A stretch of DNA of 64,000 nucleotides from an uncultured Gammaproteobacteria bacterium (GTDB lineage: Bacteria; Patescibacteriota; Microgenomatia; CAYXHB01; CAZYTL01), in the NCBI GenBank assembly GCA_964650355.1, contig CAZYTL010000001.1, positions 85,552 to 149,551 on the forward strand, given 5' to 3'. The notes below the pieces were generated by a model. The model searched no databases. It was not told where the DNA came from and saw nothing but the letters and a program-made list of their open reading frames with translations. Below, piece after piece: positions 11,560-61,295 of this stretch. Every line of letters starts with the position of its first letter. The stretch's first letter is position 1. A program made the position numbers and the translations under genes.

Positions 11560-11565
11560 TTTAAC

Positions 11566-11802
11566 ATGTCTCTGAAGGTTCTAAAATTCATTTTAGTCTG
11601 TTTATTAATCCTCTTATTTTTGCTGGGAATAGCTATTTTAAACAGACATTTCGATCTTGTTCGCTTTACCTGGAGAACGGAAGATGAACTAAAAATCACC
11701 CACGAAGTAAGCATGATTTTTTGTGACTATACAGGTATTTGGGTGAAGCGACTCCATCCTCTGATCAGAATTGTACTTGTTAAAAGATGTACCTTTATTT
11801 AA
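11566..11802 (+). CDS. Small hypothetical membrane protein (78 aa)
   Basis: Starts 7 nt after the polX stop, with a hydrophobic N-terminus. Could be a spurious ORF. Confidence 0.25.
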   Translation: MSLKVLKFILVCLLILLFLLGIAILNRHFDLVRFTWRTEDELKITHEVSMIFCDYTGIWVKRLHPLIRIVLVKRCTFI

Positions 11803-16940: not shown

Positions 16941-16947
16941 TCAATTT

Positions 16948-18243: not shown

Positions 18244-18288
18244 AATATCTAATTTATTTAACTATCCGTTCCTTTTAACTATTTAATC

Positions 18289-19686
18289 ATGAAACCATCT
18301 CAGTATTCTTATCTCCCTATCATCGGCTTGGAGATTCACGTCGAGCCCAAAACCAAATCAAAAATGTTTTGTGGGTGTGACGCCCATCACTTTCAAGTGA
18401 AACCCAACACCCACACTTGCCCCGTGTGTCTGGGCTTGCCCGGTGCATTACCAGTACCCAACCAAACCGCCATTGAAGCTTGTGTGAAGTTGGGTCTGGC
18501 TTTGGGATGCAGCATTAACAAATTTTCTAAATTTGACCGGAAAAATTATTTCTATCCGGACTTGCCCAAGGGTTACCAGATTTCCCAGTATGACGTCCCC
18601 TTTTGTTATCAGGGAAAATTCGAGTTCGCCATTCATGACGCCAAAGAATTGGCCCAACAGAAAGAATTGGCTACTAAAACGGTCGGCATCACCAGGGTGC
18701 ATATGGAAGAAGACACCGGCAAATTAGTACACGCCACAGTCAAAGGCAAAAAAGTGACCTTGGTAGACTTTAACCGGTCAGGCGTGCCCTTAATTGAAAT
18801 CGTGACCGACCCTGACCTCCGGTCAGCCGCAGATGCCAAAAGGTTTTTGAAGTGGTTAAGCCGCACCATTCAATTTCTGGATATCTCTGATTGTGACATG
18901 GAAAAGGGCAGCATGCGGTTGGAAGCCAACGTTTCGGTTAAAAAGTTTAAAAATCCCAATGAGATACTTAAGAACGAAAATTTGCCAAAGTATAAAGTAG
19001 AATTAAAAAACATTAATTCGTTTAGATTTCTGGAAAAAGCGGTTGAATATGAAATCGAGAGACAAACCGAATTGCTAAAAGAGGGTAATACCCCGATTCA
19101 AGAAACCAGAGGCTACAACGAAAACAAAGGTGTGACTTTTTCCCAACGCACCAAGGAGGAGGCTCAAGATTACCGCTACTTTCCCGAGCCGGACATTCCT
19201 CCGGTGGAATTCAAGCAGCGAGAAATAGATGGCCTCAAATCTCAAATTCCCGAATTGCCATTAGAAGCGGCCGAGAGATTGATTAAAAAGCACCAAATCA
19301 GGCCTGACTACGCAGAGTTGCTCTGTTCAGAGAGGCAAACTCTATCTAAATTTGAACAGCTGCTCAAACTTCTGCCTCAGGACATTAGCGCTAACGATGC
19401 AGCTAAACAAATCATCAACCAAAAAGTTAATCTGGTCAAACTCAACCCAGAGGAGATCCTTAAGAAAATTAACCAAGCCCGCGCCAAGTTTACCATTGAC
19501 GAAAAAGAGTTAGCCCGAATCATTAACCAAGTACTTCATGAAAATCTCCAGGCAGTCGTGGATTACCAGGCAGGTAAAACCAATGTCGTCGGCTTTCTTA
19601 TCGGCCAGGTAGCCAAAGCTACCAAAGGTCAAGCCGATCCCCAGTTAGTGAAACGACTCTTGGAATCAAAACTGACATCACCTTAA
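18289..19686 (+). CDS. gatB: Asp/Glu-tRNA amidotransferase subunit B
   Basis: IGLEIHVE...CPVCLGLPGALPV is GatB/GatE consensus. Confidence 0.9.
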   Translation: MKPSQYSYLPIIGLEIHVEPKTKSKMFCGCDAHHFQVKPNTHTCPVCLGLPGALPVPNQTAIEACVKLGLALGCSINKFSKFDRKNYFYPDLPKGYQISQYDVPFCYQGKFEFAIHDAKELAQQKELATKTVGITRVHMEEDTGKLVHATVKGKKVTLVDFNRSGVPLIEIVTDPDLRSAADAKRFLKWLSRTIQFLDISDCDMEKGSMRLEANVSVKKFKNPNEILKNENLPKYKVELKNINSFRFLEKAVEYEIERQTELLKEGNTPIQETRGYNENKGVTFSQRTKEEAQDYRYFPEPDIPPVEFKQREIDGLKSQIPELPLEAAERLIKKHQIRPDYAELLCSERQTLSKFEQLLKLLPQDISANDAAKQIINQKVNLVKLNPEEILKKINQARAKFTIDEKELARIINQVLHENLQAVVDYQAGKTNVVGFLIGQVAKATKGQADPQLVKRLLESKLTSP

Positions 19687-19743
19687 ACATCCACTAACAA
19701 AAGAAGATTTATCTTGTCCTGAGAAGATAACGACAGTGATATC

Positions 19744-20232
19744 CTATTTATTATTCGTAAAACTTCCTACTTCTGGTTTAACGATTTGTAAATAATCCTT
19801 GCTCTTCATGATCATTGATCTGGTGTGCACGCCGGCATTAAAGCAGATTTGTTTCTCCTTTAACAACTGTTCTTCTACATAGGTTGTCAAGCCCAATGCT
19901 TTACCGATTGGCGGAATTGCCCCGACTTCAATCCCGGTGATTTTAGTTACCTCTTCAGGAGTTGCAAAACGCAAATCTTTAATCCTCTGCCACCGCTTAA
20001 ATTCCTTAACATCCAATTTGGTAGAGCAGGGGAGCACAATCAAAATCGGTTGTCCATCAGCCACACACACCAAAGCTTTGGCTCCTTGATCAGGCGACGT
20101 GCCTCTGATTTTTGCCGCGTCTTCGCAGGTATGCACCCGTTCATGATCCATTACCTGATATTGGATTCCGGCCTGGTCCAGAAGCTGTTTGATTTTATTA
20201 AAAACATCCATAAGCCAATCTTCACCTAACAC
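19744..20232 (-). CDS. YbaK/ProX-family aminoacyl-tRNA deacylase
   Basis: About 160 aa with GAKALVC...IGKALG pattern typical of Cys-tRNA(Pro)/Ala-tRNA(Pro) trans-editing proteins. Confidence 0.7.
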   Translation of the reverse strand: MLGEDWLMDVFNKIKQLLDQAGIQYQVMDHERVHTCEDAAKIRGTSPDQGAKALVCVADGQPILIVLPCSTKLDVKEFKRWQRIKDLRFATPEEVTKITGIEVGAIPPIGKALGLTTYVEEQLLKEKQICFNAGVHTRSMIMKSKDYLQIVKPEVGSFTNNK

Positions 20233-20987: not shown

Positions 20988-21014
20988 ATCCCTAGTTTAT
21001 CAAAAAACCTAACT

Positions 21015-21246
21015 CTTGACAGGAGTGAACAATTTGATACACTACTTGATAATTCTAATAAATAAAGGCTGTGAAGGAGTCGGTTGGGACTCCCGAGAAG
21101 CCGATCAGGCTATCCAACGAAGGAATGTCTGACCCGCAAGCCAAGCGTTATCAAACGGCAACAGTGTGTCGGCCATTACAGTTGGAGCACTGCACAATAA
21201 GGGTATCTTGTTTTGCAACTGTAACCGAGTCTGACTCGGTTTTTTT
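21015..21246 (+). ncRNA. Candidate small RNA or riboswitch-like leader: sigma70-like promoter to intrinsic terminator (~200 nt)
   Basis: TTGACA(21015)-N16-TACACT, then a structured region (ggagtc/gactcc, tccaac/gttgga, acagttg/caactgt), then ccgag-tctga-ctcgg + T7 at 21224-21246. Confidence 0.3.
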
Positions 21247-21394
21247 GTTTCCCAGAACAAGATACTGAACCAAGGTGGCACCGCCACTGATAGCTTTCAG
21301 CTTATAGCTGACAGCTTTTAGAAGGCCCTTGTAGATTTCCGAGATATTAACTCGGTGTTCTGCAAGGGCCTTTTTATTGACTCTTTAAACACTT

Positions 21395-22465
21395 ATGACC
21401 AAAGAAGTACGTCAAGTTTTAGGGAATTACCCTGAACCATATCTGACTTACGTCCGGGAAAGAAACGGGCGCGTGGGTCAACGGTTAGCAGATATATTAG
21501 GCGTAGAATACAACCCAGCCGGCATTACTGAAAACCACCATGGGGATACGTACTGGGTATTTTCTAAACCCGTGACAACGGGTGAAGCCAATGAGCTACG
21601 ATTACAGTCAGGTCAATATTTCGGTGCAGTAGTTGGGCACTCCGCTTTGGCAGACAAGGGTGTACTGCAACCATTAGTCAACGCCAATGCCTTTCACCCT
21701 GATTATTATCCTCATGGTCTAGCTGAAGAAATTGACGGAAGCGTAATTGATGGGCATCTTGTTTTTAGTAGAAAAGATGCTCAGCATAGCTATTATAGTT
21801 TAAGAACCCGAGGGCCAGTCAGACTGAAATATCCTCCCTCAAGTGACCATGATAATCAATGGATATTGAATACGGAAGACGATTTAACACTAGCCCTGAG
21901 TAATTTTTCTGGCGACCAACTTGAACAATCTGGATTAGTTCTCCAATTGGATCTCAGTCACTTACATCCCGTAACCAGAAACATAGGCCAATTAAGAATC
22001 GGTGATCACTATTTCAGTTTTATCGGCCGACAACAAAGTATTGTCCATGCAGGTAGACTAAAATATGGTGGAACCGAATTAACCATGTTTAGAGGTGGGT
22101 TAGAAGAGTTGCAGCAAACACACAGAAGAAAAATTAATGTCCATCCCCACCTGACAGAAGCCATCGAATCTGCTATAAAACTTCGACGTGCGTATCCTGG
22201 TTATGGTGTGCAAGCAACTCGTTTTTGTGTCGACACTGTAGACCAATTTGTAGTGGATCCTTCACTACGACCGGGAGGAGCCACCCCAGCTTCAGTATTG
22301 GCTATCGCTGAGTTACTGGGTAATCCCGGCGCAGATCATGTTAGTGCTGCTTCACGGTTGCATTACGATCCTGTCCCAGGGCGTGATTATCCGGGTGAAG
22401 TGTTTTTAAATCATCCAGATTTGACCATCACCGCTAGAGTGACTGGTATAAATAACGGCTTTTAA
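21395..22465 (+). CDS. Hypothetical protein (356 aa), GC-richer than neighbours
   Basis: Long ORF with no recognisable motif. Confidence 0.5.
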   Translation: MTKEVRQVLGNYPEPYLTYVRERNGRVGQRLADILGVEYNPAGITENHHGDTYWVFSKPVTTGEANELRLQSGQYFGAVVGHSALADKGVLQPLVNANAFHPDYYPHGLAEEIDGSVIDGHLVFSRKDAQHSYYSLRTRGPVRLKYPPSSDHDNQWILNTEDDLTLALSNFSGDQLEQSGLVLQLDLSHLHPVTRNIGQLRIGDHYFSFIGRQQSIVHAGRLKYGGTELTMFRGGLEELQQTHRRKINVHPHLTEAIESAIKLRRAYPGYGVQATRFCVDTVDQFVVDPSLRPGGATPASVLAIAELLGNPGADHVSAASRLHYDPVPGRDYPGEVFLNHPDLTITARVTGINNGF

Positions 22466-22620: not shown

Positions 22621-23706
22621 TTAATTAATCGACAACAGGAACTGTTTAAGAATTAAATAGTAATCATGCAAACTTTTAACACTCACCCACTCTTCATCGG
22701 TATGCAGACCTGAACCAATCGGACCAAAGGTGACACCGTCACAACCCACCTGATTATAGAGACGAATATCAGAACCACCATGTTTAACAATCAGCTTTGA
22801 AGGCTTTCCAGTAATCTTCCTGGTGGCTTGTCTGAGCTTCTTCACATACTGGTTTTGTTCATCAGTAAATTGGCAAGGTTCATTAACCACCACCTCGATC
22901 TCGGCCAAACCTTTCAGTATCTGTTTAATTCTGTTAAGAATTTCTTCTTTGTCAGCAGGAATATAGCGCACATCCACACCCAAAATACAATCTTCTGGAA
23001 CCTTATTAAAGGTTTGGTTGGTAGTCTGCAGCATTGCCAAATTAGCTGTTGTTTTCCAAGCCTCTTCCGAGGGCACCGGAAAATGTTGGTTAAATTTTTC
23101 CATTACCAGACCCATTTGGTGAATCGCATTCTCACCATTCCACGGATAAGCTCCGTGTGCAGCCTTACCTTTAGTTTTAATTTTCAGCCAAATAATTCCC
23201 TTGGCCTGATTATTCACACCGAAGTCTGTAGGTTCTCCTGCAATCACGAAATCGGCCTTAATACCTTTTTCTATCTGATATTTAGTGCCATGAAAACCGC
23301 CCACTTCTTCATCCGTTACCAACTGCAAACCCAGGGGGTAATTGACTTTGTCCGCCAACTCTTTAAATAACAAAACCATCACCGCCGCAGCGCCTTTCAT
23401 ATCTTGAGCTCCTCTACCATACAACTTGCCGTCTCTCAATTTTGGGCTGAACATCTTTTCTGGGCCGGGCACTACATCCAAATGAGCATTCAAAATTACG
23501 CGAAACCGCTGAGGAAAACTAACTTTTTTGCAAACCAATAAACTTGGTATCCCCTGGCTTTCAAACCTTTTTACGGAAAATTCTTTTAACTCTGTTTCAC
23601 ACACCTTCAGAACTTCGTGCATGGCACTTAGGTTATCCGTAACCGAATTAATTCCAATCAGTCTTTCAGCTAATTGTCTAGTCATAGTACCTGATACATA
23701 TTCCAT
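22621..23706 (-). CDS. M20 family metallopeptidase/amidohydrolase (ArgE/DapE-like)
   Basis: HLDVVP..., GRGAQDMKG and metal-binding E/H pattern of M20. Confidence 0.8.
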   Translation of the reverse strand: MEYVSGTMTRQLAERLIGINSVTDNLSAMHEVLKVCETELKEFSVKRFESQGIPSLLVCKKVSFPQRFRVILNAHLDVVPGPEKMFSPKLRDGKLYGRGAQDMKGAAAVMVLLFKELADKVNYPLGLQLVTDEEVGGFHGTKYQIEKGIKADFVIAGEPTDFGVNNQAKGIIWLKIKTKGKAAHGAYPWNGENAIHQMGLVMEKFNQHFPVPSEEAWKTTANLAMLQTTNQTFNKVPEDCILGVDVRYIPADKEEILNRIKQILKGLAEIEVVVNEPCQFTDEQNQYVKKLRQATRKITGKPSKLIVKHGGSDIRLYNQVGCDGVTFGPIGSGLHTDEEWVSVKSLHDYYLILKQFLLSIN

Positions 23707-23712
23707 TCAAAG

Positions 23713-25083
23713 TCAACCAAAGTTCTCCATATATTTTTCAGTATATATCGAAATACGCTCACGATACTTTCTTAAATGTTCATTATCTTTAGATCCGAAA
23801 AAAGCCACCGTGTTTAAAAAAGTAAATATATCTATCAAAAAATTGTCTAAATTTTCATCCATCTTATTTAAATCTATATAAAATTTTCCGTTTTTAATCT
23901 CTAAAATTTCATACTGCTGTGCCTTTAATAGCCATAAACTTGTCGAATATAAATATTCTTCTCGGAGTCCCATATTTTTATATCTTTGATATTTATATTC
24001 AAATAACAACCAATCCAACACTAGTAAATCTCTAGTTGCACCTTTATCTAACATCGAATTTTGTTCTAATAAATAAGACAAATAGAGGGAATTTATTTCA
24101 GCCCGGCCTTCCTCTATTAAAGTATAATACTTACCGAGATTAAAACTCGCATTATTCGGTTTTAAATAAGTGTGTCCGTATTCATGTAAAATTAGACTCA
24201 GTAAATACAACTTCTCCACATTGTTTTCAATATTAGTTTTTAACTTTTTATCTAATTCAAACCGAGGCCGAGCCTTCTTGACAAAAGGTACTAACTTCGC
24301 CACTTTGCTCTTCAAATTGTTAACCATAATCATTTTTATTGTCCCGTATTTCTTCGCTAAATTGACATTTTCAGGTCTTGACCAACCTTCCGTATCTAAT
24401 TTCGCCACTTCTCCACCCTCAGATACTACGTCTCCTATAAACAAGTGAACAGCCTTATTTTCATCGCTAATGGGTAAAAATGAAAGATTATTCCTCGTAA
24501 CTTCTGACAATGAATTCCAAATCTTATTATAAAATTGATATTGTAAATTTTTATACAAAAACACAGCTGTGTAAAATCTCTTCGTTCCCAATATTTTATC
24601 ATGATAACGTTCGATCGGCCCGACACTCATTAAAAAAAATGCCGATTCATCAAAACGAAGAAATTCTTTATCAGCCTTCTCCCACTCGTCAGTTAAGAAC
24701 GCTTTTTCTAAACTAGAATAAAACCTTAACCACCTTTGCGCATTAAAACTTTCTTTTATGTTGTTAACTTCGTTTTTAATATCATTAATCAATATCACAA
24801 TTTTTTTCAAATCAAATTTGTAATAATCGTGGTAAGGAATCTCTTTAACCCTACCCGCTTTAACCATCATTACAGAATACGCATTGGTTTGATACCCAGG
24901 ATTTTGGCGTAGGAAGTCTTTAACTTCTCCTTGATAAACTCCTCCCTTTTTACTCAACTGTTTTATAAACAGTCGATCTATCTCTTTAACCAACTCGATA
25001 TTCAACTTCACAAAATCAATATAAACTTTAGGGATCTTCTTAACTATATCATCGTGTGTCCGGAGATATTTTTTCATAACCAA
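23713..25083 (-). CDS. Hypothetical protein with HExxH (LILHEYGHTY), putative zinc metallopeptidase; strongly AT-rich
   Basis: HEYGH motif. Composition differs from adjacent genes. Confidence 0.45.
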   Translation of the reverse strand: MVMKKYLRTHDDIVKKIPKVYIDFVKLNIELVKEIDRLFIKQLSKKGGVYQGEVKDFLRQNPGYQTNAYSVMMVKAGRVKEIPYHDYYKFDLKKIVILINDIKNEVNNIKESFNAQRWLRFYSSLEKAFLTDEWEKADKEFLRFDESAFFLMSVGPIERYHDKILGTKRFYTAVFLYKNLQYQFYNKIWNSLSEVTRNNLSFLPISDENKAVHLFIGDVVSEGGEVAKLDTEGWSRPENVNLAKKYGTIKMIMVNNLKSKVAKLVPFVKKARPRFELDKKLKTNIENNVEKLYLLSLILHEYGHTYLKPNNASFNLGKYYTLIEEGRAEINSLYLSYLLEQNSMLDKGATRDLLVLDWLLFEYKYQRYKNMGLREEYLYSTSLWLLKAQQYEILEIKNGKFYIDLNKMDENLDNFLIDIFTFLNTVAFFGSKDNEHLRKYRERISIYTEKYMENFG

Positions 25084-25091
25084 TTACAATT

Positions 25092-26579
25092 TTAAGTCAC
25101 AATAAAAGCACCAAAACCGGCATTCGCCATCACTAAGGTCTTGAACCACGCTTCTGCCTGAGTACAACTATCTGTCGATTCTATTTCTTTAGCCATCTCT
25201 TTTATTTGATCAATAATATACTCTTGATGAGACATAGTCATTCCGTTCTCAGGAGTATATGGCTTATGCGCTCCCACTCGGGTAAAACCAAATCCATCCA
25301 AGGCGGTCGTCCTTAACTCCAAAATTCCGCCCGGTGCTAAAGGTCCTTCCGTCATCCCATTAGGAACAATTCTTAAGATATCAACCACAGGTTGGATTAA
25401 ACGGTTATTTCTAGCCTTTAATTCGTCTAATCTGCCGAACTCAATCCCATACCCAGAATCCCCGCTTACAGGTTTGTCGATAAACATCATCGCATCCTTT
25501 CCCTCCAAATCAACTTCCCCTGGGGTACAAAAGCTGGGTATCAACATTGATACCGGACCGTATTTTTCATAAACAGGCGCAAAAGTTCCTTTAGTCAACA
25601 TCGCCATTGCAACTGGATGTTCTGTCCACATATCAGGTGAATTCAGTATCCTCTTGAACATTGCTCTCTCTTCTTCATCCATCGAACTCATCACATAGCC
25701 TATTTCTCTAGGGGTGGTATTATTCAAAAAACTTTGTCCTTCAGTACTATCTGTTCTTAATCGCCCAACGAGGTCACGAATATCTATCGGATGTCTGTCG
25801 CTTCTCCCCCAAACCTGGTTAGTAGTTACCTTGTCCGGTAAAGCATGATGTATCTCTCCGGGGCGCTCGTGTACCTTGTAATCAACAACCGAAAAATCAG
25901 ACCACCCGGCAAATATTCTAGACCTCACCTCCCAATCAAAGCGACCTAAATCTACTTGGCCTCCAAAAGCTCCATTAATTAAAAAATTACGTGTAAAACC
26001 GTAATAACCCTTGAATGAGCCCTGGCCTTCCATCCCCATGAACATAAATTGCAACTCTTTCTTCTCTACGCGCCGGTGAACCTCCTCCCAATGATTGTCT
26101 CTATCATCTATTCCCACTGCCACAGGTAATCCATTTCTAACTTCAATCGGCACCGACACAAAGTCTACTACCGGAGCTAAACCTTCCTGAAAAGATTTTT
26201 CCTTAACTGCTAAAACGGTTTCCTCACTAAACAGTTTTGGGTCTTCAACTCCATACTTCTGAAGACTTGCTGCGAAAGTTAGGTTTACTCTGGCCACGGT
26301 ATCCGCATCATTTTCGTGAGCAGCTTCCTCCACCAACAAGTCAGTCGCCCGCCTTAAATACTGATAAATATACCCAGGCACCTCTACCGGGAAACTAACC
26401 ATCCTAGTCCCTGTGAAGGTACCTTGCCAATCTCGATGAGATGTACCTTGTCCTAACCCTGCCCTGCTATTAGGCCAGCCCCGGTAAGTTTCACCCAAGC
26501 TGTCGACCATCAACTTATTAGCCTGTCTCAGTTCACCAGCATTTAATTTACGCTCAGGAATAAAGTTTATGTTTCCCAT
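25092..26579 (-). CDS. Hypothetical protein (495 aa)
   Basis: Long ORF, co-directional and tightly spaced with the ligase-like gene. Confidence 0.5.
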   Translation of the reverse strand: MGNINFIPERKLNAGELRQANKLMVDSLGETYRGWPNSRAGLGQGTSHRDWQGTFTGTRMVSFPVEVPGYIYQYLRRATDLLVEEAAHENDADTVARVNLTFAASLQKYGVEDPKLFSEETVLAVKEKSFQEGLAPVVDFVSVPIEVRNGLPVAVGIDDRDNHWEEVHRRVEKKELQFMFMGMEGQGSFKGYYGFTRNFLINGAFGGQVDLGRFDWEVRSRIFAGWSDFSVVDYKVHERPGEIHHALPDKVTTNQVWGRSDRHPIDIRDLVGRLRTDSTEGQSFLNNTTPREIGYVMSSMDEEERAMFKRILNSPDMWTEHPVAMAMLTKGTFAPVYEKYGPVSMLIPSFCTPGEVDLEGKDAMMFIDKPVSGDSGYGIEFGRLDELKARNNRLIQPVVDILRIVPNGMTEGPLAPGGILELRTTALDGFGFTRVGAHKPYTPENGMTMSHQEYIIDQIKEMAKEIESTDSCTQAEAWFKTLVMANAGFGAFIVT

Positions 26580-26618
26580 AGTCAGAGAATTAAAAAATTA
26601 GAAGTAATCATATCACAA

Positions 26619-28217
26619 TTATCGCCGTACACCCAATCTTAGTTTTAAATCATCCATAAAAACTCTTCCTGCCTCCTTATTTGTCTCTCGTATCTTTTCT
26701 TCACCCGATCCTGGAACCGTGTACGCGTAATTTAAAGCTGCCCGACCTAAATTTCCTTTCAAATAAGTACCATTTCTATTATCAAAAAACCCACCCAGCC
26801 CATACTCACCCGGTAAGTTAGCTGGAGTTAATAATCGAGAAACCACATCAACGGCTCGCTCCCAATCTGCTGATCTCTCATCAGGACTTGTCCATTCTAT
26901 TAGATGTTCCCAACCCTCAGCTACCGTAACTTCTCCTCGATTTAACTTTAATACAGCCTGATCACCATATGTGATAGCCTGCACCCGATTCTCCACCCTT
27001 TTATCCATGCTTAGTGGTTGCAAAAATGCCGGCAATGGCTCTTCATCGCTTATAACATGCTTAGCTACTCTTAAAACAAATTCTCTCTGAATCACCGCTA
27101 AGGCTAAAGCCAGTTCAAAGTGATTGCCGTCGCCAGGCCCGGTCTCAAACGTCCCTGTCCTATACTTTGTCCTCGTATCTTTATGAGAACCATTTGGTCG
27201 TGATTCCTGAATTGACAACCCCATTCTTCGTTTAGCTCTCAAAACTGCCTCATCCTTGTCATCGTTCCTTCCTCCTGCTCTTTCAGGTAAAGGAATCAAA
27301 TTCTCCCGCATTAAAAGATCTCCCCGTCTCAAATGGGCAATTGCATCTACGGGAATATTTGCCTGAACGCCTCCCCTGGTGTACATTTCCCATCTTGAAA
27401 GCTCTCTGTTTGATACCCTACCAGTCAGCTGACCTTTCCAAAACGGCGCTGCCGTGGCAATCGCATTTACCAAAGTAGCCGGCAGAGTATTATAAACGTT
27501 TCCTACATAAAGCCCAAACTCAGCACTACCTCCAAACGGCATTAAATCAGTATGACACTGGATACTCGCCGCATCAAAATCAAGAGATTGCCCATTTAGA
27601 TTATATTTCATAATCCGTGCAATTAACGGGTGAGGAGAAATATTTCCCCAACCATCAGGCAGACGAGTGCCCACCATACCCAAAGGAAGTAACAAAGCTC
27701 CTTCAACTTCACATGCATCAACTAAGGGGCCTAATCCCTTCAACAAACTATCTTCTAATTCATCCCAAGTCCTGCCCGGCGGTGTGGGAATCTCGACCAC
27801 ATAATTCTGGGCTTCCGGACTGCCTCCTGCTCTATCCAATAACCATTCTCTACCGCCTCTTGTTACAGTAATCTGATCATCTTCAAATTTCACGATCCTG
27901 TCGCCACCATAAACATTAAACGGTTCACCGGTATTTGCATCGACCACCGCCAACTCATACTCTATTCCCATTCCCACCTCTCTACTATCAGGTGGTAATC
28001 TTAAACTCTTTGTCATCTTCGCGGTATGCAGACGGATAGGCAAAAGATCCGATTCTCCCACATCAAACATGGTGTCCTCCTCGCCCTCTTGTCTCAATCT
28101 ATAGGGAACTGGTTTAACGCTTAGGCTTTTTCCCCACCATACCCCTCCCTTTCTCAAGCCATCTGGTACCTGTACTGGTCTGAAACCTTCTATTTGATTA
28201 AAACCTGCCATAACCAA
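26619..28217 (-). CDS. Carboxylate-amine ligase, glutamate-cysteine ligase family 2 (YbdK/GCS2-like) with C-terminal extension
   Basis: GMGIEYELAVVDANTGEP resembles the YbdK N-terminal GIELE.Q.V motif. NYVVEIPT resembles the E(L/I)xT motif. IQCHTDL may be the H.H motif. Confidence 0.5.
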   Translation of the reverse strand: MVMAGFNQIEGFRPVQVPDGLRKGGVWWGKSLSVKPVPYRLRQEGEEDTMFDVGESDLLPIRLHTAKMTKSLRLPPDSREVGMGIEYELAVVDANTGEPFNVYGGDRIVKFEDDQITVTRGGREWLLDRAGGSPEAQNYVVEIPTPPGRTWDELEDSLLKGLGPLVDACEVEGALLLPLGMVGTRLPDGWGNISPHPLIARIMKYNLNGQSLDFDAASIQCHTDLMPFGGSAEFGLYVGNVYNTLPATLVNAIATAAPFWKGQLTGRVSNRELSRWEMYTRGGVQANIPVDAIAHLRRGDLLMRENLIPLPERAGGRNDDKDEAVLRAKRRMGLSIQESRPNGSHKDTRTKYRTGTFETGPGDGNHFELALALAVIQREFVLRVAKHVISDEEPLPAFLQPLSMDKRVENRVQAITYGDQAVLKLNRGEVTVAEGWEHLIEWTSPDERSADWERAVDVVSRLLTPANLPGEYGLGGFFDNRNGTYLKGNLGRAALNYAYTVPGSGEEKIRETNKEAGRVFMDDLKLRLGVRR

Positions 28218-28218
28218 T

Positions 28219-28290
28219 AAAAAAACCTCCCTTTTTTAGGAGGTTGGGAAAAATAAAATGGGACGAACTTAAGTCATCTGTTGCCCTAAC
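28219..28290 (-). promoter_or_regulatory. 5' leader attenuator: AACCUCC/GGAGGUU hairpin + U-run 10 nt before ATG, with upstream GGGAGGUUAGGG copy
   Basis: Minus strand: ggctgaGGGAGGTTaggg ... ttCCCAACCTCCtaaaaaaGGGAGGTTttttttta-ATG. Confidence 0.55.
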
Positions 28291-28380
28291 CTCCCTCAGC
28301 CGTTAATAATAACGACTTCTCGGGAGATAGTAATGACGACAACAGAAAAATTCATATTAGCACTATTAGATTTGAAGTAT

Positions 28381-28443
28381 ATTTTAACCTTTTGTAGCTG
28401 GCTGTCAAGCAGCACTTGACAAAATTGAATCTATTGATAATAT
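28381..28443. promoter_or_regulatory. Back-to-back divergent sigma70-like promoters
   Basis: Plus strand: TTGACA(28416-21)-N16-TAATAT(28438-43). Minus strand: TTGACA(28408-03)-N16-TAAAAT(28386-81). Confidence 0.55.
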
Positions 28444-28513
28444 AAGCTCTAATGTATAGAGAATTATCTCTCCTTAGCCTTCTTAGCTTGCTCCTCCTTG
28501 AGGAGTAGCTAAA

Positions 28514-28582
28514 CGTGGGGAGAGACGTATTCTTTTTAATTCACTTTTATCAATTCACCTCTCCCCAGGAGAGGTTTTTTTA
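28514..28582 (+). promoter_or_regulatory. 5' leader attenuator: ACCUCUCC/GGAGAGGU hairpin + U7, upstream GGGGAGAG copy
   Basis: gtGGGGAGAGacg (28517-24) ... cACCTCTCCccaGGAGAGGTttttttt (28557-81), then ATG at 28608. Confidence 0.55.
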
Positions 28583-28607
28583 TTGCTAGAAAATACATTA
28601 CTCGCTT

Positions 28608-29870
28608 ATGGCATTTAATACAGATGAGACCAAGAATCATTTGTTTTCCGGCTGGTGGAACGATGTGAGCAGAAAATTTCCCCAACCCGTACATCAAGAT
28701 CAATCAGCTCGGGAAATACTAACTACTGCTCGTCAAGAGGCGCGACCGGTAGCTTTATTAATGGTTGGTTGTTTAAATTGGAGACAGGCTGAGTACGATC
28801 CAGAAAATAATTGGATAACTGCGTTGGATTCCCAAAACAAAAGACTTCAAGCCACCAGGGATCGGATTGCCAGTTTAGTATCTGGGTTACATTCCTTTGG
28901 AATTCCCACTCAACAATTTTTAAGCTTATCTCGCTTAGAAGCTGAGACTCTTACCTTAGGTACTCTGGGAAAGAGTGTCGTTAACACTCCCGAAGAGATC
29001 AGGGCGGTTCAAGAAAAGAGCATCGATACTGCTCATCAACTTTTCGCTGAACGGGGAGTAGCCGTCACTTTTATAGATGATACACAAGTGTTTATGCGTG
29101 AACATCATGCTGATAGCATCTCGACACTGCAAGAAAGGCTCATAGGTGATGGGGACGGTATAAGTGGCTTTTATACCGGTATGTATGAAAGTTTAGTAAG
29201 ACATCTTCCTCCAGAAGCACTTAGTAAGACCATGGAACAGACAGATCAGACTCCAGCAGGCATTATCTGGCTAGATCTAATGTCACCTCTTGCCGGACCT
29301 CATAGAGCCGAACTTTTGGACATGGGAACACGGTATAGACCAGAAATGCCAATTATTACTCCTTCCGCCAACTCGGGTAAGTGGTGGACACCTAGGACTA
29401 GAGAAGCAATGTTTCCCGACAAACTAGATTTTATTGGCCGCAGGCTAGGAATATCTACCTATCCGGGAGCTTCTATTGGGGAAGAAGATCTTATTAGAAT
29501 AATTCCTAAATTAGGAAGAACCAAACTAGCAAGATTTTTCGATGTTCCAAGGGATCAAATCAACAGAGGGGATGCTATCGACAGAATCTTTGAAATATCA
29601 GGGGTCAGAAACTCAGCTCAAGAAGCAACGCCTGATGACGCTCCGTACACCGCAGAACCTGGCGACAATATCCTTGGTGTTTACAAAGAAGTTACCGGAA
29701 AAAGTACCAATCATACGATTAAAGATCTCCGTAGGGGTATTTGGGCAGAAATACCTGTTGATGGAAATCCAGAGAGGAAACTAATTAAGGATGGTCGGAT
29801 CCCTGTTCAGCCGGGAATGAGACTAAATACCGGTAGAAACCAATGGACTTTGATTAACTTTCCAGAATAA
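28608..29870 (+). CDS. Hypothetical protein (420 aa)
   Basis: Long ORF, first gene of the plus-strand operon. Confidence 0.5.
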   Translation: MAFNTDETKNHLFSGWWNDVSRKFPQPVHQDQSAREILTTARQEARPVALLMVGCLNWRQAEYDPENNWITALDSQNKRLQATRDRIASLVSGLHSFGIPTQQFLSLSRLEAETLTLGTLGKSVVNTPEEIRAVQEKSIDTAHQLFAERGVAVTFIDDTQVFMREHHADSISTLQERLIGDGDGISGFYTGMYESLVRHLPPEALSKTMEQTDQTPAGIIWLDLMSPLAGPHRAELLDMGTRYRPEMPIITPSANSGKWWTPRTREAMFPDKLDFIGRRLGISTYPGASIGEEDLIRIIPKLGRTKLARFFDVPRDQINRGDAIDRIFEISGVRNSAQEATPDDAPYTAEPGDNILGVYKEVTGKSTNHTIKDLRRGIWAEIPVDGNPERKLIKDGRIPVQPGMRLNTGRNQWTLINFPE

Positions 29871-29872
29871 AT

Positions 29873-30907
29873 ATGAATACCAAATTAATTACTGACATTA
29901 GAGATCTGCTAATCAAGATGAAACTTGAGGCTGTGGTCATTTATTCGGGGAGCTCTGACGATCGTTTTATGAAAGCCATCGCTGGAACGCCGTCATTATT
30001 AGAAGATTACGTTTTAATTACACCTAAAAACGCTTTCATTTCTGAGCCAAGATATATAACGGCTTATACCAGACGCAAAACCACAATCCCTATTTTGGAT
30101 GCTCCAAGCGAAAGACAACTTATAGAACCCTTGATCGCCGTTATCGGAGGTCACAAAAATATTGGGATTGCAGGGAGTTGTAGATATCAAGATATTGTCA
30201 GCCTTAAACCGAATCAAGTGACAGATATCACTTCCCAAATCAACAAATTGTTAAGACATAAATCCGACTCTTATATTAAAAAACTAAAAAAGTTAGCCAA
30301 AAGTACTTCTCGAATAATGGAATCTCTCGCGATTAAAACAGGCGATCAACAATCAAAAATTGCTCAAAAGCTACACACCGCAGCTATTGAGTTAAATGGT
30401 GATTTAGCTTTTCCGATCTGTATCACCAGTGGCCGTGATCTGGAAACTAGTACCAGTACTCCTGCTAGTGCAAAAGTAATAAGAAAAAACGACGCTGTTT
30501 GTATTGATATGGGGATAAAGAGCGACATTTATGCCACCGACTGCACCAGAATGTATTTTATTAACCATCCGAACAAGAAAGCCCTCTATTTAGGAATCGT
30601 TAAAGCTCATAACGAAATTATAGATAATTTCATCAGACCTGAGAGGACTTTCAGAGAAATTATTGATGAGTATCACAGAAAATTTAAAAACCACCGCCAT
30701 ATTAAAGAAATTAGAGAGTTAGGTATTGGACATGGTATTGGCTATGGGCTTCATGAATATCCTGAAATTGCAGAAGTAGATAAAGAACCCGTGGGTACAA
30801 ATATTGTCTTCACCCTAGAGCCGACTTTTATCACTACCATGGGAAGATTTAGAGTTGAAGACATGATCAGCGTTGATTCTCAGGGGGTAGTTAGCAAGTT
30901 AACTTAA
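29873..30907 (+). CDS. M24-family (creatinase/prolidase 'pita-bread' fold) metallopeptidase-like protein
   Basis: D...D (CIDMGIKSDIYATD), H (GHGIGYGLHEYP) and E (FTLEP) in M24 order. Paralog of 31919..32944. Confidence 0.65.
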   Translation: MNTKLITDIRDLLIKMKLEAVVIYSGSSDDRFMKAIAGTPSLLEDYVLITPKNAFISEPRYITAYTRRKTTIPILDAPSERQLIEPLIAVIGGHKNIGIAGSCRYQDIVSLKPNQVTDITSQINKLLRHKSDSYIKKLKKLAKSTSRIMESLAIKTGDQQSKIAQKLHTAAIELNGDLAFPICITSGRDLETSTSTPASAKVIRKNDAVCIDMGIKSDIYATDCTRMYFINHPNKKALYLGIVKAHNEIIDNFIRPERTFREIIDEYHRKFKNHRHIKEIRELGIGHGIGYGLHEYPEIAEVDKEPVGTNIVFTLEPTFITTMGRFRVEDMISVDSQGVVSKLT

Positions 30908-30912
30908 AATAT

Positions 30913-31869
30913 ATGACAATTACAACATCCGAAACGCGGCGATTTCGAGGGCTTCAATGGGAGTTAGCGCCCCCTATAGGGGATAACGGTGCTGGCAAAG
31001 TGAACACTTTACCAGAGAGTACTATCGGCTATCTTGCTGACCAAATTGATGCCAGATTTACATTACCGGGAAGTGCAAAAGGGGGATTACAAAATTTAGA
31101 CAGATTACGTTTACTTGGTGACCGTTTACCTGTAACAGTCGTACTTTGCCCCTTGTACTTAAAAGCAGGTGGATTTGTAACTAGAGAGTCAGGTTTAACC
31201 ATCGAAGACAGCCGAATAGGAATAAAATGGCGGGAACAAGAAAAGATGTTAGATTTACTTGGCGCGGTAACTGAGAAGGAAGGTCTGAAATTAGATCCCA
31301 GATTTACTTTTGCCGATAGAGGAGTAATTGTTCCTGAAAGCCCAAATGGGAAGCTTGCCTCTATATTAGCCTATCATCAGGATCTTTATCAAAGTAGACT
31401 TGACGGCTTATTCCCAGAAGGTTATCAACTAGACACCTTTACCAGTTTAACAGACCAATACCCGACTATCGCGGGTGATTACCCCCGTTTTATAATTCCG
31501 GATGGAATACAAGACCAGAAGTACGTCCAAAGTCAAGAACCTACTACAATAGCTGCTCTTCAAGACTTAGTAGACAGAGGACTTGTTGAATCTAATGATG
31601 TATTCAGGGTTAATCCAGCAGGTGAGAAAGAATTACTAAAACGCGTTAGAAACCGCCTAAGAGGTTTAGTAAAGTTTGGTGGATATAATCTGGCATTAGA
31701 ATTTGTCCGTCAATATCACACTTTCAACAATGCCCTTGTAGCATCTAATCCCGAACATGGTTTGCATACCTACTTTGAACGCGTTGATTATCTTCTGACT
31801 TCGATGAATACTTTGGCTCGGAGATCTCCTGCTGCCACTAATCCCCGAGTAGAAGTCCTCTGTAAATAA
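30913..31869 (+). CDS. Hypothetical protein (318 aa)
   Basis: ORF between the two M24 paralogs. Confidence 0.5.
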   Translation: MTITTSETRRFRGLQWELAPPIGDNGAGKVNTLPESTIGYLADQIDARFTLPGSAKGGLQNLDRLRLLGDRLPVTVVLCPLYLKAGGFVTRESGLTIEDSRIGIKWREQEKMLDLLGAVTEKEGLKLDPRFTFADRGVIVPESPNGKLASILAYHQDLYQSRLDGLFPEGYQLDTFTSLTDQYPTIAGDYPRFIIPDGIQDQKYVQSQEPTTIAALQDLVDRGLVESNDVFRVNPAGEKELLKRVRNRLRGLVKFGGYNLALEFVRQYHTFNNALVASNPEHGLHTYFERVDYLLTSMNTLARRSPAATNPRVEVLCK

Positions 31870-31918
31870 GTTGAGCAATCCATAGAATTCAAAAGGGGCG
31901 ACTAGAAAATAGATTAAA

Positions 31919-32944
31919 TTAGGTTATTTTTATAACTTCTTTCTTTGAATTGACCGCAATCATATCTTCAATTCTCATTCTGCCGTACGGGGTAATAAAA
32001 GTAGGCTCTAAAGTAAAAACTATATTCTTACCGATTTTCGAACTACCTGACTCCACATTTGGTTTTTCATGAAGTGCGAACCCTATCCCGTGTCCTAAAT
32101 CAGATTCCATCACTTCTTCAATCTGATGATATTTTTTTGAAAAACGACGATATCTTTGAATAGTTTCATCAAATCTTGTATTGCTTGTAAGGCTGTCAAT
32201 TACTTTATTGTGGATCCGAATTATTTGTTGATATAAGCTTTCAGCTTTTGGTTGATTAACAAAAAACATTCTTGTGAAATCAGTTGTATAAATTGAATAT
32301 TTAACTCCCATATCGATACAAATCATGTCTTTAGCTCCAATAATTTTATTACTCGCCAAACAACTGGTAGAAATTTTTATATCCTGGCCGCTGGTGATAC
32401 AAACAGGAAAAGCTAACTGTAAATTTCTGTTTATAACTTTCACCTGCAACCTTTTACTCAATTCCAATTGATTTATAGAAGAAACTACCTGGATAGACGT
32501 TAAAATCTTATTCGTAACTCTTGCATACCGTTTCAAGTTGTTAATATAATCATCACTTTTATATCTCACTACATCACTAGCACTAAGGTTTAAATCTATT
32601 GTTGATTTAGGTTCCAAACTAACTATATCTGGATATTTACAATTACCCACGATACCAATCAATTTGTTTGTCCCGATTATAGATTTAATACCATTGATCA
32701 CTTCATTTTCACCCTCTACTGAGACAATATTTAAAGTTGTCCTTTTTTTTAAATCAGCTACTAAATAACTCGCTTCTGAGATGCTTATACTATTAGCAGT
32801 AACCACCAGATAATTTTGCAATACTGAATAAGTACCACTAAGTGCTTTCATATACCTGTCGTCATATGCGTTAGCATAAACAACGATCGCGTCTAGTGTA
32901 TATTTTTTAAGCAGCCTTTGAAATTTTTGAATGTAATAATTCAT
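31919..32944 (-). CDS. M24-family metallopeptidase-like protein (paralog)
   Basis: CIDMGVKYSIYTTD, LGHGIGFALHEKP and FTLEPTFIT align with 29873..30907. Confidence 0.65.
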   Translation of the reverse strand: MNYYIQKFQRLLKKYTLDAIVVYANAYDDRYMKALSGTYSVLQNYLVVTANSISISEASYLVADLKKRTTLNIVSVEGENEVINGIKSIIGTNKLIGIVGNCKYPDIVSLEPKSTIDLNLSASDVVRYKSDDYINNLKRYARVTNKILTSIQVVSSINQLELSKRLQVKVINRNLQLAFPVCITSGQDIKISTSCLASNKIIGAKDMICIDMGVKYSIYTTDFTRMFFVNQPKAESLYQQIIRIHNKVIDSLTSNTRFDETIQRYRRFSKKYHQIEEVMESDLGHGIGFALHEKPNVESGSSKIGKNIVFTLEPTFITPYGRMRIEDMIAVNSKKEVIKIT

Positions 32945-33999
32945 AAGCCGTATTCACTAGCTTCATCAGCTATGGTTTCTAAAGATTTACCTAAATAAGG
33001 CACCTTTACTGCCCCGTCACTCAACAGTACAAGATTGTGAAAAGGTCTTAATATTGATGTTCTAGGTCGGGAACCACCATCAGGATAATCTAAATTATAC
33101 GCATAAAATTCCTTATGCCCAGGATTTAAAGGTCCCGGTATAGTATCTAACATGACTACGTCTCCCTTGTGTGTCAACTTTGTTCCAAACAAAGTATTAC
33201 TAAAGTCTTGGAGGTGATCGCCTGTTGCTGCAACTAATCCAAAATTTTCATCGACCACTCTCTGTATAATTTCTTCCCTTGTCGTGTACCCTCCCCAGGC
33301 ATATTGAAGCCATGAACCATCTGCTTCTACAGTAGTCCTTAGTAATCCTGCCCAGCGATTATCACCCTCAGCCATTATTCCTCTCAGCTGAGAATTCCAC
33401 CAATCCCAGTGATGATAAAAGCCATCAACTTGTACTTTGCTTTCTGGATGTGCAACAATATCCGTTAATTTTACAACCTTAGTAGACATAGGGATATCTC
33501 CATTAAAAGAACGCTGGGATAACCCGTGAGATAGTAAATTTGTGATAGTTTCAACGTTACGGCAGGTAGTTAAACGAATATGTTCTTTTAATTCTTCTGC
33601 TGATCTACCTCTATGGTCAAGATTTAATGGACTAAATAATTGCTCACTCATACCGACATCAACTAAAACTATTCCGAGATTAAACGGGATACCTAAGAGA
33701 TTTAAATCTAATAATCGACTGGGTAGTTCTTCATGTAATAATACATAACCACGCCTTAAACCATATCCAGAACTGTCCCACACCATTTCATTGTGAACGG
33801 TAGGTCTACGTACTCCATCTATTTGATAAGTTTCATAATTAGCACAAATAGGAGAAACTAATGGAGCTGGAATTCCAGACTCTGCGGCCTGGGTTAGTAT
33901 ACGCACCGCTTGATCAGGATATTCAAATCTCTCTTTGGAAAGAGACTCCTTTTGCCATCTTTGAATAACAGCTTCAATTTCTAGTTGTTTATTTGACAT
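32941..33999 (-). CDS. Hypothetical protein (352 aa)
   Basis: ORF with a 4-nt overlap onto the downstream M24 paralog. Confidence 0.5.
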   Translation of the reverse strand: MSNKQLEIEAVIQRWQKESLSKERFEYPDQAVRILTQAAESGIPAPLVSPICANYETYQIDGVRRPTVHNEMVWDSSGYGLRRGYVLLHEELPSRLLDLNLLGIPFNLGIVLVDVGMSEQLFSPLNLDHRGRSAEELKEHIRLTTCRNVETITNLLSHGLSQRSFNGDIPMSTKVVKLTDIVAHPESKVQVDGFYHHWDWWNSQLRGIMAEGDNRWAGLLRTTVEADGSWLQYAWGGYTTREEIIQRVVDENFGLVAATGDHLQDFSNTLFGTKLTHKGDVVMLDTIPGPLNPGHKEFYAYNLDYPDGGSRPRTSILRPFHNLVLLSDGAVKVPYLGKSLETIADEASEYGL

Positions 34000-34015: not shown

Positions 34016-34096
34016 CTAAAAAAACCTCCTTTTAGGAGGTTTGTGATTTAATAATTGTGGTTTAGTTTTATTTATCTTCTGCCACAAACCTCCGCT
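34016..34096 (-). promoter_or_regulatory. 5' leader attenuator: CACAAACCUCC/GGAGGUUU hairpin + U-run, with upstream GGAGGUUUGUG copy
   Basis: Minus strand: gcGGAGGTTTGTGgc (34081-95) ... tCACAAACCTCCtaaaaGGAGGTTTttttttag (34046-16), then ATG at 33999. Confidence 0.55.
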
Positions 34097-34261
34097 TCTT
34101 TAGTTAAAGAAGAAAAAGAAGGTCTGGAAAGCAAAAGAGTTTGATTGCATACTGATCTGTAGACTTATTATGGGTGATAATACTAGATTCGGAAACAGTG
34201 TCAAGTATTAAAATTGACTTAAACGGCACTTAGACAATTATGTTTTTGAAATCTTTACACT

Positions 34262-61021: not shown

Positions 61022-61160
61022 AAAAAAGCCTCCTTTTCGGAGGCTGTGTCGGGAAAACAAATGTGATTGAATTATTAACTTCCACCCACGACTACAACCT
61101 CCATGGCCGGGTTAGCATCGACAGAGTCGATAGCTCCAGCGAAAAGCATGGAGGTTTTGG
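61022..61160 (-). promoter_or_regulatory. Leader attenuator (4th copy): AGCCUCC/GGAGGCU hairpin + U-run, upstream GGAGGUUGU copy, 6-codon uORF
   Basis: Minus strand: ggccatGGAGGTTGTag (61119-05) ... gaCACAGCCTCCgaaaaGGAGGCTtttttaATGGCAAAGCATGAAAATTAA. Promoter TTGACT-N17-TAAAAT at 61288-61260. Confidence 0.5.
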
Positions 61161-61295
61161 GATATTGTTGCCAGCAACGTTGTCTTTCCATAAACTACTT
61201 TAAGAGTCGAAATAGTTATTTATACAGCAGAAGCTATGCTCCAATCCGTATATTGGTATATTTTATCCCATAAGTTAAATTAAGTCAAAAAACCG

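Follow-up and report, generated by a model that had tools for sequence, protein, structure and literature searches.

Layout of the island and its three leaders

The 64,000-nucleotide stretch of DNA analyzed here (hereafter the window) comprises positions 85,552 to 149,551, forward strand, of contig CAZYTL010000001.1 (assembly GCA_964650355.1), which derives from an uncultured bacterium deposited under Gammaproteobacteria and placed by GTDB in the Patescibacteriota, class Microgenomatia. Between positions 22621 and 33999 it contains an island of nine open reading frames (ORFs) in which metallopeptidases stand beside proteins predicted to have ligase-type folds, and each of the three transcription units is preceded by a leader-peptide attenuator. 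The units are tight, with intergenic gaps of 2-39 nucleotides (nt) or a 4-nt overlap. An initial annotation, made from the sequence alone, had given the same nine genes in three operons, and their coordinates and orientations were confirmed. The genes are as follows; CDPS denotes cyclodipeptide synthase and aaRS aminoacyl-tRNA synthetase.

Operon 1, 28217-22621, minus strand: four genes (532, 495, 456, and 361 amino acids [aa])
26619..28217, minus: lig532, divergent carboxylate-amine ligase, possibly GCS2/YbdK-like, from sub-threshold matches
25092..26579, minus: orf495, predicted ATP-grasp acid-amine ligase fold of the GspS/YgiC/Cp1B/eukaryotic glutathione synthetase type, from structure prediction
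23713..25083, minus: HExxH protein, 456 aa, apparently an M49/dipeptidyl peptidase III (DPP III)-like metallopeptidase; HEYGH (residue 300) and EEGRAE (residue 324), 24 residues apart
22621..23706, minus: M20 peptidase, 361 aa, ArgE/DapE-family deacylase or dipeptidase (Pfam E 9e-30 and 7e-16)
Operon 2, 28608-31869, plus strand: three genes (420, 344, and 318 aa)
28608..29870, plus: orf420, orphan, N-terminal part resembling orf352; VGCLNW and LFAERGV motifs
29873..30907, plus: M24B peptidase, 344 aa, prolidase/aminopeptidase P type, from Pfam and motifs
30913..31869, plus: orf318, predicted class-Ic aaRS/CDPS/PvcA fold; invariant Cys79 (TLCPLY)
Operon 3, 33999-31919, minus strand: two genes (352 and 341 aa)
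32941..33999, minus: orf352, predicted class-Ic aaRS/CDPS/PvcA fold; motif SPICANYE, with Cys52 conserved in all full-length members
31919..32944, minus: M24B peptidase, 341 aa, paralog of 29873..30907, from Pfam

A scan of 13.5 kb for sigma-70-type promoters reveals that the three top matches lie directly upstream of the three leaders. The -35 boxes of the divergent operons 1 and 2 mirror each other in a palindrome at 28402-28421 (TGTCAAG-CAGCA-CTTGACA), which could also be the operator for a shared regulator. The initial annotation had noted a similar leader in front of every operon, and this holds for all three; their elements are the following.

28381..28408, minus: operon 1 promoter, TTGACA-16-TAAAAT, 11/12 consensus positions, among the best matches of the scan
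28296..28355, minus: operon 1 leader ORF, MNFSVVVITISREVVIING, 5 Val and 4 Ile among 19 residues; its stop codon overlaps antiterminator segment 2
28284-28297, minus: operon 1 antiterminator segment, GAGGGAGGTTAGGG, part of 28219..28297
28219-28248, minus: operon 1 intrinsic terminator, CCCAACCTCC..GGGAGG followed by a run of seven T residues (T7)
28416..28443, plus: operon 2 promoter, TTGACA-16-TAATAT, overlapping that of operon 1 in the palindrome
28452..28508, plus: operon 2 leader ORF, MYRELSLLSLLSLLLLEE, 9 Leu among 18 residues
28517-28525, plus: operon 2 antiterminator segment, GGGGAGAGA, part of 28517..28581
28556-28581, plus: operon 2 terminator, CACCTCTCCCC AGG AGAGG followed by T7
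34177..34204, minus: operon 3 promoter, TTGACA-16-TATTAT, 11/12 matches, the top match of the scan
34100..34150, minus: operon 3 leader ORF, MQSNSFAFQTFFFFFN, 7 Phe among 16 residues with a run of five (chance of such a run ~1e-6)
34083-34093, minus: operon 3 antiterminator, GGAGGTTTGTG, pairing perfectly with CACAAACCTCC; the whole element spans 34018..34093
34018-34045, minus: operon 3 terminator

Each leader is closed, immediately before the first gene, by a CCTCC...GGAGG hairpin with a stem of 8-9 bp (28224-28245, 28557-28575, and 34022-34042) followed by T7. Minimum free energy (MFE) folds give a 1:2 hairpin and the terminator in every leader; the regulatory codons lie in the 5′ arm of this long hairpin, and its 3′ arm (segment 2) can base-pair with the terminator's 5′ arm. 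The ribosome footprint was then masked codon by codon and the leader refolded. In operon 3 the antiterminator is the MFE structure with the ribosome on most of the Phe codons (6, 8, and 11-14), and the terminator returns with the ribosome on Phe15, Asn16, or the stop codon. A co-transcriptional criterion, which asks whether the terminator's 5′ arm has found a partner before transcription reaches its 3′ arm, gave the same pattern in 3/3 leaders: 5/6 or 6/7 bases of the arm are paired when the ribosome occupies the regulatory codons, and 0 bases when it occupies the last codons. In operon 1 the arm is pre-paired with the ribosome on codons 2-16 and free on codons 18-20.

The leaders are shown, by their sequence and folding, to be three ribosome-mediated attenuators for distinct amino acids (Ile/Val, Leu, and Phe). 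They combine an amino-acid-rich ORF, an intrinsic terminator, a position-dependent antiterminator, and conservation before orthologous genes, which together typify leader-peptide attenuation. From the composition of the leader peptides the operons should respond when the charged tRNAs for Ile/Val, Leu, and Phe, respectively, run short. At the gathering threshold Rfam finds only three tRNAs in the whole window, and permissive scans of the leaders returned nothing above noise and no T-box; a known riboswitch or T-box was accordingly rejected as the identity of the leaders. The Rfam family Phe_leader (RF01859) scored 25.4 bits against a threshold of 55 bits, that is, below the family cutoff.

None of the 16 start codons inspected (e.g., 36217, 36112, and 28452) has a Shine-Dalgarno sequence upstream, and in several cases the -10 box is separated from the ATG by 8-11 nt. 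The source organism thus appears to rely as a rule on leaderless or Shine-Dalgarno-independent initiation, and leader ORFs of this kind would be normal there. The -10 box of operon 2 ends 8 nt before the leader ATG, and this ORF is probably leaderless.

By comparison, the enterobacterial leader-peptide attenuators (pheA, pheST, leu, ilvGMEDA/ilvBN, and trp) have the same short ORF rich in the regulatory residue, the same 1:2, 2:3, and 3:4 segments, a terminator with a U-run before the first gene, and a leader stop codon at which the terminating ribosome blocks segment 2. The island leaders differ in that they control genes of peptidase and ligase folds rather than biosynthetic or aaRS genes, lack Shine-Dalgarno sequences (with one ORF probably leaderless), belong to no Rfam family, and come from a rarely sampled lineage. 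The T-box regulons of the Firmicutes are a functional analogue, in which a cis-acting RNA senses tRNA charging and antitermination controls amino-acid-specific supply genes; unlike these, the island leaders rely on ribosome stalling at a leader ORF and not on tRNA binding. To our knowledge the genes under leader-peptide attenuation are those of amino-acid biosynthesis and of the aaRSs, and a literature search gave no account of attenuator-controlled peptidase or CDPS-like operons.

Peptidases and ligase-fold proteins

The assignment of one M20 and two M24 peptidases in the initial annotation was upheld by NCBIfam and Pfam, with Pfam E-values of 9e-30 for the former and 1e-27 and 3e-27 for the latter. 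The M20 protein possesses both the catalytic and the dimerization domain and scores 193 bits against TIGR01910, just under the 217.6-bit cutoff. The two M24 paralogs are 44% identical to each other, and each contains all five metal ligands (D, D, H, E, E) within CIDMG, TDxTR, GHGIG, LEP, and (V/I)ED. The HExxH protein that had also been noted carries the motif as HEYGH at residue 300. It shows a weak match to bacterial DPP III (PDB 5zum; E 3e-4), no match to Pfam M49, and weak matches to CiaB/DUF7897. The motifs of M49 are HExxGH/HExxH and EExR(K)AE, with which its HEYGH and EEGRAE may be compared, and the protein looks like an M49-type (DPP III) zinc peptidase.

Four further proteins, orf495, orf420, orf318, and orf352, were described initially as orphans, and they did indeed remain without a match in Pfam, NCBIfam, or PDB sequences. 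Their probable nature emerged from structure prediction. A fusion of orf318 and orf495 was modeled with each half aligned to its own homologs, the cross-spill amounting to only 10 residues; the orf318 half has a predicted local distance difference test (pLDDT) score of ~85-95 and the orf495 half a moderate one of 50-95. Over 165-230 aligned residues the structural matches to orf318 are TyrRS (10.7), CDPS (9.5), and PvcA (9.3), and Foldseek, with weak E-values only, likewise places TyrRS at the top. The models predict that orf352 and orf318 adopt the class-Ic aaRS/CDPS/PvcA (Rossmann) fold. Comparison of the orf352, orf318, and orf420 families by hhalign reveals weak colinear similarity (E 0.3, 0.0045, and 0.027), so that it is structure that connects orf352 with orf318. 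Common to the families of these two proteins is a colinear pattern in which strand 1 ends in a conserved Cys and is followed ~55 residues later by a strand with (V/A)D-x-G. Counterparts of these motifs in orf420 are VGCLNW and LFAERGV. The N-terminal part of orf420 resembles orf352 (BLASTP E 0.008) and the orf352 family (hhalign E 0.0045), and on this sequence similarity orf420 is probably a third member of the fold family.

Membership of the class I aaRSs proper does not follow from the fold. In the family alignments of orf352 and orf318 neither HIGH nor KMSKS is conserved, no anticodon-binding domain is present, and the proteins are just 318-352 aa long; compared with the catalytic domains of TyrRS and TrpRS they have neither the ATP-binding signature motifs nor an anticodon-binding domain. 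Nor is a PvcB-type oxygenase, the isonitrile-pathway partner of the PvcA/IsnA isonitrile synthases, found beside them.

The CDPSs form a diketopiperazine from two aminoacyl-tRNAs. Like orf352 and orf318, CDPSs such as AlbC, YvmC, Rv2275, and 6y4b have a class-Ic aaRS Rossmann fold that lacks HIGH and KMSKS (PMC4159871) and an association with Phe and Leu, the characterized bacterial enzymes using mostly Phe, Leu, Tyr, and Met (PMC4159871). Their catalytic Ser follows strand 1 and is accompanied by a conserved Tyr and Glu (PMC4159871). In the island proteins Cys52 and Cys79 occupy the end of the first strand (45-52 and 71-78, respectively), with a nearby Ser49 that is not invariant; judged from secondary structure rather than superposition, these Cys residues would be equivalent to the CDPS catalytic Ser. 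Sequence identity to the CDPSs is 7-14%, and the island proteins are 60-130 residues longer. Searches with the orf352 and orf318 families gave no match to Pfam CDPS at E<=0.01 and none to PDB sequences at E<=10. Two differences of context may be added: the partners are metallopeptidases and not the tailoring enzymes that accompany CDPSs, and the island proteins would be induced when aminoacyl-tRNA is scarce.

The modeled half corresponding to orf495 is predicted to be a three-domain ATP-grasp acid-amine ligase of the GspS/YgiC type, and an E421-x-R423 motif is invariant in its family. It has no detectable sequence similarity to the GspS/amidase, to the YgiC/YjfC peptidyl-polyamine synthetases, or to Cp1B. 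Whereas the hydrolase partner in glutathionylspermidine synthetase/amidase is a CHAP amidase, that of orf495 is the M49-like zinc peptidase, and, unlike systems of the GspS/YgiC/Cp1B type, its genes stand behind an Ile/Val attenuator. Ligases of the Cp1B type join hydrophobic amino acids in a natural-product pathway (PMC12568646).

Support for the GCS2/YbdK-like ligase of the initial annotation, lig532, is weak. The conserved motifs of this family, which has a glutamine-synthetase-like fold, are G-x-E-x-E and SSPFW..TG..S.R, beside which GIEYE (residue 84), CHTD, and APFWKGQLTGRVSNR (residue 257) of lig532 may be set. The protein carries a precomputed PF04107 tag; the Pfam GCS2 match (E 0.017, 14.9 bits) falls below the 21-bit cutoff, and the NCBIfam matches, around APFWKGQLTGRVSNR, cover ~25 residues at E ~1e-3 with 14.6-18.2 bits against cutoffs of 176-427. 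On these sequence matches lig532 is possibly a GCS2/YbdK-like ligase.

A fifth orphan, of 356 aa, had been counted with the island. It is the product of the convergent neighboring gene at 21395..22465 (plus strand), which lies outside the coordinates given for the block, has a structured leader of its own, and belongs to an existing Pfam family, DUF3182 (E 2e-43), described as an unrecognized ATP-grasp family (PMC4431377). The gene is possibly associated with the island; it was not found near the relatives' loci examined. The combination of amide-bond ligases with amide-bond hydrolases under a common type of cis-control, matching no named pathway, is thus borne out, and the ligase content is richer than was first seen, with the predicted ATP-grasp fold of orf495, the predicted aaRS/CDPS fold of orf352, orf318, and probably orf420, and the ATP-grasp neighbor.

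Relatives and recurring gene pairs

Every protein of the island is a singleton cluster in a collection of 15 billion proteins. With orf495, orf352, and orf318 joined into a single query, an exhaustive HMMER search of 1.84 billion representatives recovered three clear relatives of orf495 (43-46% identity) and one distant one, ~10 of orf352, and ~30 of orf318. Pfam revealed no shared family, and no domain at all, in the 47 family members, and PDB sequence and profile searches with lig532, orf495, and orf420, and with the orf352, orf318, and orf495 families, gave nothing significant. For lig532 and orf420 a word-indexed search of 5.8e9 clusters, no exhaustive search having been made, returned the query alone.

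The full block was present in 0/4 loci from one genome scan and one metagenome scan, each of which took the orf352-family motif as its seed. The recurrent unit is instead a ligase-fold protein with an exopeptidase. In locus L012 an orf352 homolog is followed by an ortholog of the M24 peptidase at 31919..32944 (50% and 51% identity, respectively). In L014 and L015 the order is M28-like peptidase, orf352 homolog, and M20 peptidase, that of L015 being 57% identical to the island M20. In L009 and L011 the orf495 homolog adjoins a homolog of the HExxH protein, and in L010 it is paired with an M42 peptidase. In L003, L004, and L006-L008 the gene after a more distant relative of orf318 encodes an alpha/beta hydrolase. 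The initial annotation would have been contradicted by orphans falling into unrelated housekeeping families and by genes never co-localized in other genomes. This is not what was found: the nine-gene block is not conserved, but two of its pairs recur.

The pairs stand behind different attenuators in different genomes. Phe-rich leader ORFs precede the orf352 homologs of three loci from other metagenomic organisms, each with a GGAGG-type antiterminator and a terminator; the chance of a run of 4-6 Phe is 1e-5 to 1e-7. The leader ORFs are as follows.

L002: MDKAQQTLLANKSNKFFVFFTNIIKEVFY, containing ..KFFVFFT..
L013: MSLNQAFTFFFFNLQKREALT, containing ..AFTFFFFN..
L015: MKKIKLTNFFFFFFYLNLGGEIVLVNKL, containing ..TNFFFFFFY..

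Immediately downstream of the orf352 homologs of L002 and L013 are the genes thrS-infC-rplT-pheS-pheT (regions L002:4244-10239 and L013:5433-13352). In L013 a 240-aa AlaX-like protein, corresponding to the C-terminal part of tRNA-synt_2c, directly follows the orf352 homolog, and in L006 a tRNA_bind protein is encoded two genes after the orf318 relative, behind its pair with the hydrolase.

Further attenuators occur in the relatives at L013:173-320 and L015:413-560, where Val/Ile/Leu-rich leaders precede peptidase or orphan operons. The operon behind the leader MQKRVLFTVIKFVLICKGKNVVGGIL encodes a creatininase-family amidohydrolase and an M28-like peptidase together with two orphans; behind MMKTQVLSIIFVLFILIAA lies the gene of a 599-aa orphan without a Pfam match. 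This suggests that the attenuator-controlled regulon is wider in the lineage of the island. The orphans beside orf352 homologs (599, 520, 412, 196, and 150 aa) have no similarity to the island proteins. In L009 an incomplete ORF that precedes the orf495 homolog was considered as a homolog of lig532 and rejected on test. The orf318-family members of L003, L004, L007, and L008 (about 10001-11725 or equivalent; 24-28% identity) precede a 267-aa alpha/beta hydrolase with a weak Peptidase_S9 match and then a shikimate dehydrogenase-like gene, on contigs where AbiE toxin-antitoxin genes are abundant.

Base composition is uneven as well. The initial annotation had the block GC-richer than its surroundings and read this as horizontal acquisition. 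The measured values run the other way (island 0.397, window 0.420, 10-kb flanks 0.435 and 0.464); because the island lies below both flanks a GC-rich horizontal island was rejected, and horizontal acquisition on the grounds of high GC is not supported. Within the operons three of the peptidase genes are AT-rich, with values of 0.314 (HExxH), 0.320 (341-aa M24), and 0.378 (344-aa M24), while M20 stands at 0.414 and the ligase-fold genes at 0.39-0.45. Loci with orf352 relatives lie at 0.31-0.42 and those with orf495 relatives at ~0.50. The unevenness of genes and loci may reflect a mosaic origin of the modules.

Possible function of the island and other elements of the window

With a probability of about one half, the island is an amino-acid-limitation regulon, that is, a starvation-induced supply of Ile/Val, Leu, and Phe through exopeptidases and amino-acid-specific ligase-fold partners. 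Transcription from the strong sigma-70-type promoter of each operon would enter a leader with a short ORF and three competing hairpins. With plentiful charged tRNA, the ribosome at the leader stop codon would cover segment 2, the CCTCC/GGAGG terminator would form, and transcription would stop before the first gene. A stall on the Val/Ile (operon 1), Leu (operon 2), or Phe (operon 3) codons would leave segment 2 to pair with the 5′ arm of the terminator, resulting in read-through.

The peptidases would then cleave oligopeptides or aminoacyl conjugates to liberate whichever hydrophobic amino acid is lacking: the M49/DPP III-like enzyme would release dipeptides, the M20 enzyme would serve as dipeptidase or deacylase, and the two M24B peptidases of the Xaa-Pro type would complete the metallo-exopeptidase set. 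Most of them have an amide-ligase-fold partner (orf495 with the M49-like enzyme; orf352, orf318, and probably orf420 with M24), which may bind or activate the same amino acid or aminoacyl group. The chemistry would proceed through an acyl-phosphate in the ATP-grasp partner and through an acyl-enzyme on the conserved Cys in the aaRS/CDPS-fold partners, and the aminoacyl group would be channeled onward, possibly to or from tRNA.

Three points weigh against this proposal. The full-length MFE structures of the operon 1 and operon 2 leaders mostly keep the terminator, and the case for an antiterminator there rests on the kinetic, co-transcriptional criterion. The main difficulty is the co-induction of ATP-consuming ligases together with peptidases in a starving cell. 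In addition, CDPS-fold proteins that consume aminoacyl-tRNA, as true CDPSs do, would be counter-productive when charged tRNA is scarce. The co-induction of ligases and peptidases would make sense if the proteins had a tRNA-linked role or served to open resistant compounds such as cyclo(Xaa-Pro).

More speculatively, and with a good deal of reserve, orf352, orf318, and orf420 can be imagined as a new class of Cys-dependent aminoacyl-transfer enzymes, each forming with its dedicated metallopeptidase an amino-acid-specific rescue pathway under attenuators that read charged tRNA. In one version cyclo(Phe-Pro) and cyclo(Leu-Pro) diketopiperazines, or resistant conjugates, would be opened via an acyl-enzyme and the M24 prolidase would finish the reaction; in the other, aminoacyl groups would be moved without ATP between peptide-derived donors and tRNAPhe or tRNALeu.

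Among the alternatives, the one that survives best, though we hold it to be doubtful, places tRNA itself at the center: the Cys-containing aaRS/CDPS-fold proteins would act directly on tRNAPhe or tRNALeu, either stripping unusable acyl or peptidyl groups (trans-editing, recycling) or transferring aminoacyl groups between a peptide-derived donor and tRNA, and the peptidases would process the released or donor peptide. The structure that matches best is that of a CDPS in complex with Phe-tRNAPhe, with class-Ic aaRS catalytic domains close behind; the preference of bacterial CDPSs is for Phe, Leu, Tyr, and Met (PMC4159871); and the charged-tRNA pool is exactly what the attenuators sense. The AlaX-like editing-domain gene (L013), thrS-infC-rplT-pheST (L002 and L013), and tRNA_bind (L006) as neighbors point the same way, but this tRNA-gene context is confined to two or three loci, maybe from closely related organisms, and the conserved partner is always a peptidase and never a tRNA enzyme. 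The proteins, moreover, have no anticodon-binding domain, HIGH motif, or KMSKS motif, and operon 1 is left without explanation.

The initial annotation itself favored a cluster for the synthesis or turnover of one small amide, gamma-glutamyl-type compound, or modified peptide, of which a cyclodipeptide or pseudopeptide would be examples. Five or six proteins of amide-ligase folds (GCS2-like, GspS/YgiC/Cp1B-like ATP-grasp, DUF3182, and the CDPS-fold proteins) are consistent with such a cluster, as is the addition of hydrophobic amino acids by Cp1B-type ligases in a natural-product pathway (PMC12568646). We nevertheless consider it unlikely. Attenuators for three different amino acids are regulation typical of supply genes, and since they sense charged tRNA they favor amino-acid supply or a tRNA-linked function over a single small product. 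The modules are shuffled between genomes, the pairs separating behind different attenuators rather than the block being conserved as a unit, and the island has no tailoring, export, or immunity genes, which makes a single-product cluster less likely still. Four peptidases would destroy a peptide product, and the CDPS-fold proteins lack the CDPS sequence signature and have Cys where CDPSs have Ser.

Least probable is an inducible defense against inhibitors of PheRS, LeuRS, IleRS, and ValRS (aminoacyl-adenylate mimics, Trojan-horse peptide-nucleotides), which would cause the same ribosome stalling and be bound by the aaRS-fold proteins and cleaved or modified by the peptidases and ligases: attenuators do answer any loss of charged tRNA, an aaRS-like fold is suited to binding aminoacyl-adenylate analogues, and amide hydrolases are known to detoxify compounds of this type, but nothing specific supports it, the operons include no resistant aaRS copy, acetyltransferase, or efflux gene, and the conservation of the pairs across very different metagenomic organisms better fits a housekeeping nutritional role.

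To return to the amino-acid-limitation regulon, the operons under attenuator control, in the island as in several uncultured relatives, combine exopeptidases with proteins of predicted ligase fold that are very rare. The attenuators can serve as functional labels (Phe for orf352; Leu for orf420 and orf318; Ile/Val for orf495 and lig532), which turn hypothetical proteins into testable candidates for a new amino-acid or tRNA rescue route. On the structural predictions, at least two proteins of the island would be unrecognized relatives of the class-I aaRSs and CDPSs and would extend the known diversity of the aaRS/CDPS/isonitrile-synthase fold.

Several other elements of the window may be mentioned. 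The 407-nt region at 20988-21394 (plus strand), upstream of the DUF3182 gene, has a promoter (TTGACA-16-TACACT, 21016-21043) and encodes a very stable RNA (z = -7.2) with an internal terminator and T-run (21223-21241), a second long hairpin with a T-run just before the ATG, and a T-box-like GGTGGCACCGCC. It has no Rfam match at E<1 and no amino-acid-rich leader ORF, and may be a small RNA plus a leader, or an unrecognized riboswitch. At 61027-61191 (minus strand), ~215 nt upstream of a gene for a multi-pass membrane transporter (60811-59609), lies a mini-ORF ending in MEVVVVGGS, together with a hairpin (AACCTCCATG..CCATGGAGGTT) and a terminator (AGCCTCCGAAAAGGAGGC with a run of six T residues); this may be another Val attenuator or merely the terminator of the upstream gene. 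Lastly, in the region 15504-20232, a gene for a class II synthetase of the AsnRS/AspRS type is inserted between gatA and gatB, and a free-standing YbaK/ProX-type tRNA-editing domain is encoded at 19744-20232, three genes from the island.

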